DNA from: a virus
Lineage: Duplodnaviria > Heunggongvirae > Uroviricota > Caudoviricetes
Direction: 5' to 3' (one strand)
IMG/VR virus record: IMGVR_UViG_3300048930_000283
DNA length: 42,873 nt
Shown here: piece after piece, positions 10,433-23,367 of the stretch
Position numbering within the stretch: position 1 is the stretch's first letter
How the letters are laid out: every line of letters begins with the position of its first letter
The notes under the pieces: model-generated
What the model saw: only the letters and a program-made list of their open reading frames with translations
Told to the model about the DNA's origin: nothing
The model's database searches: none
Position numbers and translations under genes: made by a program

Positions 10433-10677
10433 TGGTCATCTAATAGCCGAGGTTCTGTATCAGTACATATGTACCTAATCTATCATTTATCTCAGTTTTT
10501 GTCAAACTGGCACCGAAGTGCTGCCACAACCCGAACCTATAAGCAGAAGTTTCCCAGGTTCTGTTTGTGTTGCTTACTATATCACGGTGGTTTAACGATC
10601 ATTGATCTCCCACTCGACTTCTGCGTAAGCCTCGAACTTCCTCTACCCATAAAGAGCAGCGATAGATTTGATGACCA
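10433..10677 (-). ncRNA. rnpB: RNase P RNA, minimal (245 nt) with a reduced S-domain
   Basis: P1 TGGTCATC/GATGACCA; P4 strands GAGGAAGTTCGAGGC and ACAGAACCTCGGCTA; P5 GCTTAC/GTAAGC; P6-like GCAGAAGT/ACTTCTGC. Confidence 0.85.
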
Positions 10678-11296: not shown

Positions 11297-11632
11297 TTAT
11301 CCTAATACTAGAAATGGAAAAACAAACAAGGCAAACAATAGAAACAAAAATGCCCATCTAAACTTTTTCCAATATTCTTTCTTTTCTATTGAAACACATT
11401 CCTGACACATATAGATGTCTTTATTTCTGTAGTACAATCTACCAGAATTTACTCTAAGTGTTGGTTTAAACCCTTTACCAGAAAATAGACTCTGTACATT
11501 CCCAACAGAAACTGAAGTACCTGAGCGACCAGATTGAATCTCTATTGTTCTGGCCTCACATTCACCAATATCGACAACATTGCCACAATAGTAACATTCA
11601 ACCGCACCAAATTTTGGTTTTCTTCGCCGCAT
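11297..11632 (-). CDS. zinc-binding membrane-anchored hypothetical protein
   Basis: two CxxC motifs; C-terminal TM; GGAGG RBS. Confidence 0.7.
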   Translation of the reverse strand: MRRRKPKFGAVECYYCGNVVDIGECEARTIEIQSGRSGTSVSVGNVQSLFSGKGFKPTLRVNSGRLYYRNKDIYMCQECVSIEKKEYWKKFRWAFLFLLFALFVFPFLVLG

Positions 11633-11659
11633 GATACCTCCATATTATAGTTAGAATTC

Positions 11660-11926
11660 ATGCAGAGGTTTTTGGTAATAAGGAAACCTCTGCGAACCCC
11701 ATCGAAGGTTACGCCGCTAGGCGCAGTTCTCCGAAATATGCACTATCATTTGCATTTATAGTTTTGTCTTCTTTAACTATCACGACTTTCGACCTTGCCG
11801 ATCCCAATATAGTGATTATGACCCAATCGAAACCATGACCGGCCCATCAAAAGGATACCAAATACCCTTTTGGTGGACCGAAAGGGAGTCGAACCCTTGT
11901 CTTGACCCATTTTCCAATATATTGTT
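11660..11926 (-). ncRNA. ssrA: circularly permuted (two-piece) tmRNA; tag ANDSAYFGELRLAA
   Basis: T-arm+CCA piece (ends 11871) precedes GGGCCGG 5' piece (starts 11845); G3.U70; intervening hairpin; tag frame 11753-11709. Confidence 0.9.
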
Positions 11927-12245
11927 TTACTCAGTTACCTGAGTGAATTTTGTTAAAATCCTACCTTTAGTTAATTTAGTTACCATTGTATTACTTGGGT
12001 ACAGATAATAATTCTCACTGCCATCATTGTACCAATGTCTGCCATATGCAGGATTTTTCTTATCCTTTTTGATATCTCTCCACATTGATATTGGAACCCA
12101 TCCGGATGGAATATTATCTTTGTTAAATGATTTTCTTTCACTGCAATCATTCGCATTCTCAGGAATGCACCAAACACACCCATAATGATTGTTGTTGGTG
12201 CCGGTGGCAAGTTCTGAAAGGCGATTCTTTGTTTCTTCTGAAAAC
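11927..12245 (-). pseudogene. C-terminal (NUMOD-like) fragment of a homing endonuclease
   Basis: SEETKNRLS..NNHYG..W, NPAYGRHWYNDG, KGRI; no catalytic domain. Confidence 0.65.
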
Positions 12246-13179: not shown

Positions 13180-14040
13180 TCACTGAGATTACATGATTTG
13201 CTACAGCCACCTTAGTTCCATTATCCACAGTATTGCGTACCGGGTTCTGAACTTATCCACGGAATCAAATTCCGTCTGACTGCATAACCGCCTTTTTAAC
13301 GTTGTGGCATTTCAACGATCTAGCAACACAACTCTAGTTCTGATCTACTCCCAACCTTGCGGGCTGTTCGGGCTGCTACACCCTAGATGCGACCTCGACT
13401 AAACATCATCAGCCTTGCGAGCCTCAGACGCCAACCTTCATCTTTCGATGGATTGGATTAGGTTATTTTCGTGTTACTATGAGTGCGACTTTGCTTTTTA
13501 GTAAGGTTGGACTTGAACCAACAACGATCTCTTGACATGAGATTGATCTCCTTGATCAACTTATTTGCAACCTACATTTGGAGCGCACTCAACGCTTCGT
13601 AATCTTTTGAATTACGAAATACGCTTCCAAATCTACCTTTCTGCTGCCGCATACTCAGTGAAATTTCTAGACGTCGTCTATGTCATTTCTTACAGACATT
13701 AGCCGAGACCTATTATTTTGAACTAAACCCTTTTCTTGCGGGATCAGAGCTTAATTCTACCCTTTACCTTTATAAGTGATGGATTTGGTACAGCTGTGAG
13801 ATCGGCACCACCCGTCTATGCTTTCGCACTCTCCATACACTGACGTTCCCAGACTAGCTGGCGTCTAAGTGTAAGTTCTTGTCACAGCATCCACTTCCCT
13901 ATTACGACCACCGCATTTGTAAGTGATCGCCCTGTCACCAGGGAGGTTAGGCTTGCATGAATTTCCATTTACATGGCGGGAGTTAAGTAGGATCTGCTCC
14001 CTTTCGCTGACTTGCGCCAGTTTATGTGTCATGCCACTAA
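13180..14040 (-). ncRNA. probable GOLLD large ncRNA (~860 nt)
   Basis: no convincing ORF; many GNRA hairpins (GCAA/GAAA); 3' segments AAAAGGCGG, GTGGATAA and GTAATCTCAG resemble the GOLLD 3' domain as I recall it; tRNA-array context. Confidence 0.7.
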
Positions 14041-14094
14041 TTCTATACTACATTAATACAACTTTAAATACAAATTTACTACTTTACTACTTTA

Positions 14095-14186
14095 TAGACC
14101 TGATGGGATTCGAACCCATGACATAATGTAGTGTCGTTTGACTCCTAGGATAACCACATCTGCTCTGGCCTCTGAGCTACAGGTTT
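14095..14186 (-). ncRNA. tRNA-like RNA with a branched anticodon arm
   Basis: canonical D and T arms; 8-bp anticodon-position stem enclosing 20 nt; no CCA. Confidence 0.65.
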
Positions 14187-14188
14187 AT

Positions 14189-19170: not shown

Positions 19171-19830
19171 TCATATCGTCATATGAGCTAAGATTCTTCC
19201 TTTTCTATATCCGGTCGGTATTTCATCACTCTTTTTAATTTTCTTATTGAAAATACCGTTAGTTATCCACATAGTACCAAACTGGGAATTACCCACACCA
19301 GTTTGATTTTTAGAATTTTTCCTACTTATTTTTTCCTTAGACAACAAATTGTGCGTTTTTCCTAGAAAAGCAGTTTTACCCGCACTAGAAAACGCCTCGC
19401 TAATTCCATGTCTACTATAAGATATTGTTCCACCCAACGAACCCAATTTGGAATGAAAATTATCACCATATAAGTTTCGAAGTTTCTCATTCGCAAGAAG
19501 TCGTCCCTTACGTGTTCTGGAAATATGCAATTCAGACCCATCATTTAAATAGTCAAACCCACCACTACCGCCTCGTCTTAGATTATAGGTATCATCACGA
19601 GCTAGAAATTCTTCGGTTACGATTTCTGCTTCTCTTGCATACATCGCTTCTTTTGATTCGAAGTACTCTAGGATAGTTTTGGTGAAATTTTCCACACCAT
19701 ATTTCTCGATCGCTGCTAGAATTACTTTTCCAGAGCCCATATAACCATCATTTAAATCTTTGGTTTTATGCACTCCTACGTAAATTTTGCCATTGAGATT
19801 ACATCTCACTTCATATAAGTAATAGAACAT
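19171..19830 (-). CDS. Seg-like GIY-YIG homing endonuclease
   Basis: YYLY..KIYVGVH..YMGSG..YNL; NSQFGTMWITNG. Confidence 0.9.
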   Translation of the reverse strand: MFYYLYEVRCNLNGKIYVGVHKTKDLNDGYMGSGKVILAAIEKYGVENFTKTILEYFESKEAMYAREAEIVTEEFLARDDTYNLRRGGSGGFDYLNDGSELHISRTRKGRLLANEKLRNLYGDNFHSKLGSLGGTISYSRHGISEAFSSAGKTAFLGKTHNLLSKEKISRKNSKNQTGVGNSQFGTMWITNGIFNKKIKKSDEIPTGYRKGRILAHMTI

Positions 19831-20375: not shown

Positions 20376-20380
20376 ATATT

Positions 20381-21045
20381 TGGCCTCAGCTATCTCAGTC
20401 GATAAACGTCCGAGATTGTCTTAATCTGTATCCTGAGGCAATACAGAAGCATCACCAATACTATAAGATGAGATACCACTTGGTGATGTAGTAATCCCAC
20501 CACTACTCTTTAATGATTTCTCCCAGGAAACTAACGCCCCCTGTTCCATCTGCCAATGGCTGTGGTTTTGTGATAATCCCTGGCAGGGGTCGTGTCACTT
20601 ATCCACTCTTCTGAAGAGAAACCATTAAAGAGTGCTCTATTTCTAGAGCAAATCAACATGAATCCTATTAGTATGTCTACCCACAGACTACACCTCGCCG
20701 ACGCATGGCCGATGGGGGAGTGCATACCAGCTGTGTCTATAATAGAATCATATTGACCTAAACGACCCATTTTTCCGCTGACAAATCAGCTTCCATCCTT
20801 GTCGCCGCCCATTCGGTTTTATTTACAAGGTTCCGCAGTCTCGTTCCGCATTTCCTTGACTCACTGTTGCCTGGCATCAGCTTACTTCATCGATTGTCTT
20901 TCGACTCGATTGCCCTCTTTAGGTCACTAACAACCCGGAGTACCGATTGTTAGAAGAGGTCTTCTTGGCGGGCTCTTGACCCCACTTAGCCCTTAATTAC
21001 TTCGCATCATTTACCTGTTACTCACCTTCAAATCAATCAACATGA
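20381..21045 (-). ncRNA. structured non-coding leader of the tRNA array (several modules)
   Basis: no convincing ORF; closed stems at 20505-20633 and 20651-20758 and many hairpins. Confidence 0.55.
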
Positions 21046-21100: not shown

Positions 21101-21137
21101 ACAAACAAAAAACCCCAGATTTTAATGTCTAGGGTTT
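21101..21137 (-). terminator. intrinsic terminator of the putative attenuator
   Basis: AAACCCTAGA-CATTAAAA-TCTGGGGTTT followed by a U-tract. Confidence 0.8.
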
Positions 21138-21167
21138 CTGTTTACTACACACCAGTAACCCTAGAAC

Positions 21168-21248
21168 TTATGCTGGTGCACCTTCCCATCCACAATTCAA
21201 TAGAATTGAATCGGATATTAAACTATATGTAAAGGGTTTGCGCTGCAT
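21168..21248 (-). CDS. putative attenuator leader peptide MQRKPFTYSLISDSILLNCGWEGAPA
   Basis: AGGA RBS 6 nt before ATG; followed by mutually exclusive hairpins; 25 distinct codons out of 26. Confidence 0.7.
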   Translation of the reverse strand: MQRKPFTYSLISDSILLNCGWEGAPA

Positions 21249-21276
21249 TTCTGTTCCTAAGGTTAATTTGTTTTCC

Positions 21277-21307
21277 ATTATAATATATATGCCTGCTGCG
21301 AGGTCAA
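21277..21307 (-). promoter_or_regulatory. sigma70-like promoter for the leader
   Basis: TTGACC followed by TATTAT (16 nt spacer) or TATAAT (19 nt spacer). Confidence 0.5.
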
Positions 21308-21331
21308 AACTAAGAAATTTTGAAAAATATT

Positions 21332-21622
21332 TTACAGTTCTATATAGTTGCTCTTAATTAGATTTATACCCAATAGTTTACAATAAACCACAAACGAATC
21401 ACGACCACTTAAACTATCAAAGTAAACGTGTCCTGCATTAGAAATACCACCAAACATTGTAGCGTCGGGTAATTCAGCATTATAACGTGTTTTTGGTGGT
21501 AGTGTTATCCCAAACCACCCCAAATACTTTTCAGTTGGAGGAATTTCAAAATATAGAATGTTAACTGAATTCATTATCGTCTCGGTGCCCAACTCGCATT
21601 GCCATATTTGACTCTGTTTCAC
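21332..21622 (-). CDS. hypothetical protein (probable start MNSVN)
   Basis: ORF overlapping the queD end. Confidence 0.5.
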   Translation of the reverse strand: MKQSQIWQCELGTETIMNSVNILYFEIPPTEKYLGWFGITLPPKTRYNAELPDATMFGGISNAGHVYFDSLSGRDSFVVYCKLLGINLIKSNYIEL

Positions 21623-22723: not shown

Positions 22724-22993
22724 CTATTTCATAATTGTTTCGTAAAGAGATTCAAATTCCTCAACTTCTTTGATTTCTTTATCGAATGATGCCTTATTAT
22801 AGACACGAACCATTCGATTGAAGAATTTCTTAGGGATGTTTAGTTCTTCTTGCATGACCTCGGCAATGGCCTTCATTTCATCCCGCTCAGATTGCATCCT
22901 GATCAAGCAATCGTTACTTTCTTTAACAGCAGCCTTAACTCGCTCAATATCTTTAGGATTTGTTGGTAGAATTACTGTAGTTGGTTGAGTCAT
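22724..22993 (-). CDS. T4 DsbA-like dsDNA-binding protein
   Basis: IPKKFFNRMVRVY..FESLYE pattern and size. Confidence 0.7.
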   Translation of the reverse strand: MTQPTTVILPTNPKDIERVKAAVKESNDCLIRMQSERDEMKAIAEVMQEELNIPKKFFNRMVRVYNKASFDKEIKEVEEFESLYETIMK

Positions 22994-23157: not shown

Positions 23158-23367
23158 TCATTTCTTCGCTTTCGGCTTCAATGAATTTTTATAGTATTGC
23201 ATGTCTAGCTTACCTGCTGCAATTTCCTTGAGAGCAATGGTTGCTGCACCAGGTGTCTTAGAGTTACCCAACTCTCGAACCCTGGTAGCAGCAATAAGAG
23301 CCAATTCATATTGATTTGGAATCTTTTTCCTTGCATCTTCAACTGAATACAATGCTTGTACTGTCAT
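23158..23367 (-). CDS. rpoZ: RNA polymerase omega subunit-like protein
   Basis: SVED..IPNQYELALIAATRVREL..IALKEIAAG matches the omega signature. Confidence 0.8.
   Translation of the reverse strand: MTVQALYSVEDARKKIPNQYELALIAATRVRELGNSKTPGAATIALKEIAAGKLDMQYYKNSLKPKAKK

Follow-up and report, generated by a model that had tools for sequence, protein, structure and literature searches.

A codon-diverse leader reading frame and competing hairpins ahead of a phage tRNA island: a candidate translation-sensing attenuator

The leader locus and the tRNA island behind it

The window analysed here is a stretch of 42,873 nucleotides (IMG/VR record IMGVR_UViG_3300048930_000283) from an uncultured phage of at least about 171 kb, which occurs in activated-sludge and bioreactor samples. 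The phage encodes a T4-like DsbA and an RpoZ-like gene, and its nearest cultured relatives as judged by DsbA (Xanthomonas phage Xoo-sp13 and Vibrio KVP40-like phages) show an identity of only 36–38%. The RNA polymerase omega-like protein (PF01192) adjoins the T4-type DsbA late-transcription factor (PF11126) at 23158–23367 and 22724–22993, and this pair is kept in relatives. All features that are placed on the window in the following lie on its minus strand.

The leader locus begins with a promoter-like element, P1 (21277–21307), consisting of a -35 hexamer TTGACC and an AT-rich -10 block that contains both TATTAT and TATAAT; a promoter scan scored it 10/12, the match being TTGACC-16-TATTAT at 21307–21280. 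It is followed by a Shine-Dalgarno-like AGGA (21255–21258), found by direct reading 6 nt before an ATG, and by the leader open reading frame itself (21168–21248), which has 26 codons followed by TAA. A hairpin is predicted inside this frame over codons 11–21 (21187–21217), and codons 24–26 contain segment 1, GCACCAG (21173–21179), which can pair with CTGGTGT at 21149–21155. Segment 2, TCTAGGGTT (21157–21165), begins 2 nt past the stop codon and forms the 5' arm of a putative antiterminator, in whose loop the segment 1 partner lies. Segment 3, AACCCTAGA (21128–21136), is the arm common to antiterminator and terminator, and segment 4, TCTGGGGTT with its U-tract (21107–21119), is the 3' arm of an intrinsic terminator that a terminator scan placed at 21108–21139 with 12 pairs and a U-tract. 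A second promoter, P2 (21050–21078), follows 30 nt past the terminator and has the perfect sigma-70 sequence TTGACA-17-TATAAT.

An earlier note, made from the sequence of the window, had read a promoter, an AGGA site, a 26-codon frame with 25 different codons for 18 amino acids, a terminator and a further promoter on this strand, and each of these elements was found where it had been placed; direct reading gives the same codon and amino-acid counts, and the downstream promoter, described there as a perfect sigma-70 promoter, indeed matches in 12 of 12 positions (21078–21050). A longer frame of 36 codons, starting at an in-frame ATG ten codons upstream in lineages A–C (see below), was rejected as a product of P1 because this ATG falls in the -10 box, upstream of the starts of the RNA-derived contigs.

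Such contigs are available from Logan metatranscriptome assemblies. In two studies they start at 21269 and 21272, a few bases past the -10 box of P1; in library X20 the contig that begins there has a depth of 127, compared to 4.5–8.5 for contigs over the upstream gene. The RNA-library contigs continue across the terminator and P2. These starts and the run-on fit an active P1 and some read-through, and give a weak hint of both, as the data are assembled contigs that provide neither 3' ends at the terminator nor reliable levels, and in which carry-over of DNA is possible. In one of the libraries, the contig of the downstream RNA has about 10 times the depth of the contig that covers the leader, contig depth being a poor measure. 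The X12 contig matches 21021–21272 and then continues upstream with 95 unrelated bases that include a UUCG-capped hairpin; it is chimeric, or stems from a strain in which the upstream region differs.

The first element that read-through from the leader would meet is a structured RNA of about 660 nt (20380–21043), which lies between P2 and the first tRNA, contains blocks conserved in all four lineages described below, and has no family in an Rfam search. It is abundant in RNA libraries. In one of these, the pieces 20792–20899 and 20870–20940 have depths of 1176–1526 compared to about 45 beside them, and the former piece, of 108 nt, is bounded by adapter sequence, which suggests a discrete abundant RNA.

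Behind it lies the tRNA island, which the earlier note had described as comprising 36 tRNAs, a tmRNA and RNase P. The tRNAs and the tmRNA are borne out, although ARAGORN counts 28–32 tRNAs, to which Rfam adds a few more; the RNase P RNA is found at sub-threshold level only. The tmRNA is of the permuted type (11618–11964; 85 bits in Rfam), and ARAGORN gives it a tag peptide of 14 residues ending in AA. The candidate minimal class B RNase P RNA (10439–10671) is a 233-nt end-to-end Rfam match that scores 34 bits where the cut-off is 97 (E = 6e-8, for a search of 351 bases). The island also includes a GOLLD RNA (13180–13634), recognized as a full-length Rfam match of 184.5 bits, and a tRNA-like gene with a four-base anticodon (ccta) at 14094–14187, identified by relaxed ARAGORN settings and by Rfam (tRNA, 45.6 bits); it could act in suppression or frameshifting, or the fold could be wrong. 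Between tRNA genes, at 19171–19830, lies a gene for a GIY-YIG (SegE-like) homing endonuclease; in the variant L013, this part of the island has a tRNA-Ala instead.

Relatives of the locus and competing hairpins

Relatives were found by using the neighbouring transglycosylase and QueD genes as anchors, and the evidence base consists of four lineages. Lineage A comprises the window and eight close variants (L013–L020), lineage B a single IMG/VR contig (L001), lineage C two Logan contigs (L007 and L012), and lineage D a single distant ENA sequence (L025), the transglycosylase of which is 41% identical. The same order of elements is present in all four: a short reading frame with a ribosome-binding site, an antiterminator, a terminator, a near-consensus sigma-70 promoter, the structured RNA and the tRNAs. 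A P1-like upstream promoter is recognizable in lineages A–C, with the AT-rich -10 block kept, and not clearly in D. The AGGA site is present in L001, weaker in L007, and replaced by AAGAAGG in L025, and the equivalents of P2 score 11/12 in L001 and L025 and were read by eye in L007. Leader homologues of 26–27 codons occur in L001, L007, L012 and L013–L020. The earlier note had proposed to look for a conserved short reading frame upstream of the tRNA arrays of related phages; such a frame is present, with frame and length retained, and the other computational checks proposed there likewise turned out in favour of the note.

The gene directly upstream of the leader differs between the lineages; thus the leader is conserved and its neighbour is not. 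Between QueD and the leader, the window has a gene at 21332–21574 that is unrelated in sequence to the gene in the same place in L001 (7090–7332); L007 has a gene at 1769–2026 there, of 85 residues in L007 and L012. Some lineage A variants have an extra gene of 125 residues between the transglycosylase and QueD genes, i.e. there is a variable slot beside the conserved switch region.

Within lineage A, the window and L014 have zero substitutions from 21320 to 20781, where they differ only in a 3-nt insertion; the flanking genes are 81–98% identical. This insertion, between 21241 and 21242, adds a CAA codon (Gln) after leader codon 2 and is found in many sludge and bioreactor variants. Most of these show no other change in leader, terminator or P2; in L017, the spacer of P2 differs at one position.

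Further searches were made for the leader and for the structured RNA behind it. No match was obtained among cultured phages at the DNA or peptide level, and when IMG/VR and JGI metagenomes were scanned with peptide patterns and degenerate DNA patterns, only the L001 contig was returned; L010 and L011, which have in-frame stops, were discarded as chance matches. A two-motif scan for the downstream structured RNA found only L001 among viral contigs, apart from one chance match (L027), and its 63 matches in bacterial genomes were taken as chance, the 12 with the lowest G+C being devoid of tRNA genes. A protein-database search with a 51-residue frame of L001 found nothing. The other relatives identified through transglycosylase or QueD (L002, L009, L021–L023, L026 and L091) have a different synteny and no such leader.

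In each lineage, the stretch that separates the stop codon from segment 4 folds into a single hairpin, the antiterminator, which uses the 5' arm of the terminator as its own 3' arm. The two hairpins are therefore mutually exclusive in all four lineages, as they are in attenuators, and an intrinsic terminator lies between the leader frame and the downstream genes in the window, with equivalents in L001, L007 and L025. The arms differ in sequence between lineages and remain complementary, segment 3 covarying with both segment 2 and segment 4, and so the covarying hairpins that the earlier note had proposed to look for are present in terminator and antiterminator alike. Folded alone, the antiterminator hairpin of the window has an energy of -16.6 kcal/mol (z = -3.55), and over the four lineages the values are -16.6, -15.9, -14.9 and -12.0 kcal/mol (z from -3.55 to -2.51); the corresponding terminator energies are -15.9 kcal/mol (window), -19.6, -13.9 and -11.4 kcal/mol. 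Since the antiterminator matches the terminator in strength and emerges before it in the transcript, it should form and block termination unless segment 2 is blocked.

The position of the reading frame would offer a means of blocking it. When the stop codon occupies the A site, the ribosome shields about ten bases on the 3' side of the stop, and segment 2 falls within this region, with 2 nt between stop codon and antiterminator arm in the window and 0, 5 and 1 nt in L001, L007 and L025, respectively. Folds were computed with a ribosome-sized mask moved along the leader, which describes equilibrium folds and not kinetics. In lineages B, C and D, the antiterminator persists for almost every position of the masked ribosome as far as about codon 23, and in D it is lost for ribosome positions 22–28. 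A ribosome on the last one or two codons removes or weakens the antiterminator; when located at the stop itself, it masks segment 2 only in part in lineages C and D. Both the distance to the stop codon and these masked folds thus place the reading frame such that the ribosome position is predicted to select between the hairpins, as in known attenuators. Without a ribosome, the antiterminator is predicted to form in B, C and D and not in A. In lineage A, segment 2 has an alternative partner in the 5' untranslated region (-13 kcal/mol), and the antiterminator prevails only with the ribosome at codons 1–3 or 20–24.

Two further pairings involve the reading frame itself. All three pairings proposed by the earlier note (1:2, 2:3 and 3:4) exist in the sequence. 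The 1:2 pairing (GCACCAG with CTGGTGT) is weak and conserved only in part, declining from 7 pairs in the window to 6 of 7 in L001 and 5 in L007, and it is not predicted to displace 2:3. The hairpin inside the frame (codons 11–21) comes out of separate predictions for lineages A, B and C and is kept through correlated codon changes, for instance from A-U to G-C and from G-U to G-C. It could serve as an RNA polymerase pause site that synchronises polymerase and ribosome.

The same structures could be read in another way, namely as an insulator that shields P2 and the island from upstream transcription, or as a terminated RNA of about 165 nt that acts in trans, with regulated read-through being unimportant. 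The consensus promoter directly behind the terminator in all lineages would suit such a role, the whole leader transcript of the window folds well (z = -3.7), and trans-acting attenuator RNAs are known, rnTrpL being an example (PMC6614838). A plain insulator, however, needs neither a reading frame nor an antiterminator as stable as the terminator, and the long-range stem between the 5' untranslated region and segment 2 of the window RNA is not conserved in L001 or L007. We consider this reading quite unlikely.

Coding signature and codon diversity of the leader

The leaders of lineages A, B and C have 26 codons each with the same start and stop, and they differ from each other by whole changed codons flanked by unchanged ones. 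The five isolated single-base differences are all synonymous third-position changes, and the natural 3-nt CAA insertion of lineage A variants keeps the frame. With this pattern of substitution as its basis, the leader frame is probably translated.

An additional constraint acts on the choice of codons. Conserved leader residues keep the identical codon in 84–88% of cases, compared to 42–46% in the pooled neighbour genes QueD, transglycosylase, DsbA and RpoZ (P from 3e-4 to 1.4e-3). Part of this constraint is explained by the hairpin inside the frame, which leaves codons 5–8 and 22–23 to be accounted for; pairing of the conserved codons 3–10 with segment 2 is no better than that of shuffled sequence. 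At the amino-acid level, 15 of the 26 residues are invariant across lineages A–C, a PFTY near the start of the leader is conserved, and the dipeptide EG is located five residues before the stop in all four lineages. The conservation of PFTY and EG, as residues and as codons, is not predicted for a pure sensor of composition, and is not explained by RNA pairing.

The coding signature would also be expected if the locus were an ordinary small gene, encoding a 26-residue micro-protein with its own promoter and terminator, and if the second hairpin were structural or incidental; the amino-acid identity of the leaders (58–81%) is indeed similar to that of neighbouring proteins. Against this reading, the terminator arm has a nine-pair complement, which shows covariation in the four lineages and in each of them adjoins the stop codon, and the synonymous sites of the leader are constrained, unlike those of the neighbour genes. 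The D leader keeps the composition and not the sequence, and no protein family match was obtained. This explanation appears improbable to us. Both the micro-protein and the insulator or small-RNA readings are the weaker because neither needs a covarying antiterminator that abuts the stop codon.

The leader is also diverse in composition. The lineage A leader of the window has 25 distinct codons and 18 amino acids in 26 codons; among 6361 same-length windows of the phage's own genes, this corresponds to P = 0.0014 for the codons and P = 0.005 for the amino acids, and compared to random open frames of the same base composition P is 0.008–0.01. The lineage B leader (L001) has 23 distinct codons and 19 amino acids in 26 codons, a number of amino acids reached by 0 of the 6361 gene windows, and the lineage C leader (L007) has 24 distinct codons and 17 amino acids in 26 codons (P = 0.03 for amino acids, gene windows). 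Against random open frames of matched composition, the 18, 19 and 17 amino acids of A, B and C have P values of 0.008, 0.0007 and 0.05, respectively. As these three leaders are homologous, their diversity values are not independent and amount to roughly one observation.

Lineage D provides a second one. Its leader (L025) has 36 codons, of which 31 are distinct, and includes 20 of 20 amino acids (P about 0.002; 0.0015–0.003 under three nulls), and the encoded peptide can barely be aligned with those of A–C and has little in common with them beyond EG. The D leader, although a single sequence, is a near-independent replicate of a hypothesis that had been stated beforehand. The earlier note had proposed a comparison of codon diversity with same-length windows of reading frames; the diversity is above chance in that comparison and recurs in D. 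The 26-codon leaders each lack 1–3 amino acids, those missing from the leader of the window being His and Val. Runs of one amino acid, the usual regulatory codons of attenuators, are absent, and diversity is significantly high rather than low. For Ser, Leu, Ile and Gly, every synonymous codon that the leader of the window uses matches a different isoacceptor encoded by the phage, an excess over chance that is not demonstrable with about 33 phage tRNAs.

Pausing or arrest by the nascent peptide is known from TnaC and SecM, and a nascent-peptide attenuator would place the signal in the conserved residues: these would make the ribosome pause or arrest close to the end of the frame when a specific ligand or state is present, and the switch would report that signal and not tRNA supply. 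The invariant residues of lineages A–C, the EG shared by four lineages at the same distance from the stop, and the extra constraint on codon identity all point in this direction. The D leader shares almost only the EG, and yet it has the same architecture and an extreme diversity; in addition, no known leader or arrest peptide family (Pfam, NCBIfam) matched the three peptides of lineages A–C at E values up to 10, and no candidate ligand is evident. A mechanism of this kind is rather unlikely, and the conserved residues leave room for a nascent-peptide effect.

Known attenuators and the proposed switch

In trp/his-type attenuators the regulatory codons form a run or cluster for the amino acid that is made by the operon. 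The phage leader resembles the attenuators of enterobacterial amino-acid operons (trpL, hisL, leuL, thrL, pheL and ilv) in having a short leader reading frame, translated in those operons and predicted to be so here, followed by a terminator and an antiterminator that shares an arm with it; in both, as we propose for the phage, the position of the ribosome would pick the hairpin, and a ribosome at the stop codon would favour termination. It differs from them in the absence of a single-amino-acid run, since almost every amino acid occurs once or twice, in the absence of a convincing 1:2 anti-antiterminator, and in the strong promoter behind the terminator. Downstream of the phage leader there is a structured RNA and a tRNA island, whereas trp-type attenuators precede biosynthetic genes. 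Of the trp/his-type layout that the earlier note had recognized, the terminator, the shared-arm antiterminator and the placement of the reading frame therefore stand, while the run of one amino acid is absent and the 1:2 pairing is weak.

T-box riboswitches, which have no reading frame, make antitermination depend on the state of the tRNA pool through direct binding of uncharged tRNA. The proposed phage switch would likewise tie the tRNA pool to antitermination, with a reading frame as an element of its own. No T-box match to the leader element was found in an Rfam search at E values up to 10, and no Rfam family was assigned to it, the best matches having E values of 0.4–0.7.

Closer in what they sense are two bacterial upstream reading frames. 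Stalling in that of whiB7 (wblC) in mycobacteria leads to antitermination, and is activated by starvation for many amino acids and by knock-down of tRNAs and tRNA synthetases; the composition of the frame, which is enriched in alanine, sets what is sensed, and the output is a bacterial transcription factor (PMC10274678). The phage leader has no sequence relation to it, conserves diversity rather than enrichment, and has phage tRNA genes as its output. The toiL frame of E. coli topAI-yjhQ is multipurpose, in that ribosomes stalled at different positions remodel the downstream RNA; it senses antibiotics, and acts via occlusion of a ribosome-binding site and Rho-dependent termination (PMC12121999). 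Unlike the phage leader, toiL has no pair of intrinsic terminator and antiterminator, and no link with tRNA genes. Full-text literature searches found no published case in which a leader peptide controls tRNA genes or a phage tRNA array.

We propose, with a probability of roughly 0.55, that the locus is a ribosome-mediated transcription attenuator which terminates only when translation keeps pace, and which thereby senses general decoding capacity. Transcripts from P1 and from the upstream operon would carry the 26-codon leader frame. A ribosome in step with RNA polymerase would be on the last codons or at the stop as segment 3 emerges, and would cover segment 2, so that formation of the terminator would end the RNA near 21107. 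With a ribosome that falls behind or stalls early, segments 2 and 3 would pair first and prevent the terminator, and transcription would pass P2 into the structured RNA and the tRNA island. According to the folds, such read-through would be permitted by a stall at nearly any codon in lineages B–D, and at codons 1–3 or 20–24 in the window.

Since the leader includes almost all amino acids and hardly repeats a codon, its translation would reflect general decoding capacity, and a shortage of nearly any charged tRNA would lead to read-through. Possible triggers are a mismatch to the codon usage of the host, cleavage of tRNAs by host defences, starvation, and a general slowing of translation. The direction, the trigger and the benefit of the switch are what we infer from this arrangement: it would constitute a demand loop, in which poor decoding leads to more transcription of the island and good decoding halts the transcripts of P1 and the upstream operon at 21107. 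The idea of the earlier note, an attenuator that samples nearly every tRNA, is upheld in this respect by conservation, covariation, diversity and the geometry at the stop codon, and is not upheld in the role that it gave to the 1:2 pairing.

The main weakness of the attenuator reading is P2, which is able to drive the island without the switch. All lineages have a consensus sigma-70 promoter past the terminator, and so the island can be transcribed without read-through. P1 and P2 may be active at different times of infection.

Why phages carry large sets of tRNAs is an old question, and the control of phage tRNA expression by the phage itself is, to our knowledge, essentially unknown. Recent studies have linked such sets to the evasion of host defences that cleave tRNAs (PMC10264068, PMC11555353). 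A broader proposal, which we put forward tentatively and with somewhat less than even odds, is that large phages gate their tRNA islands by a leader that samples essentially every amino acid and acts as a demand sensor for total decoding, with island transcription rising when any tRNA is short, including under attack by tRNA-cleaving host systems; the four lineages would then be a compact form, of 26–36 codons, of a widespread and unpublished class. If the attenuator reading is true, the leader would be a device of about 170 nt that turns slow translation of any kind into transcriptional read-through, with possible use as a general reporter of translation stress, and it would represent a regulatory logic undescribed for tRNA genes, by which trp-type attenuation would be extended from one amino acid to the whole decoding apparatus.
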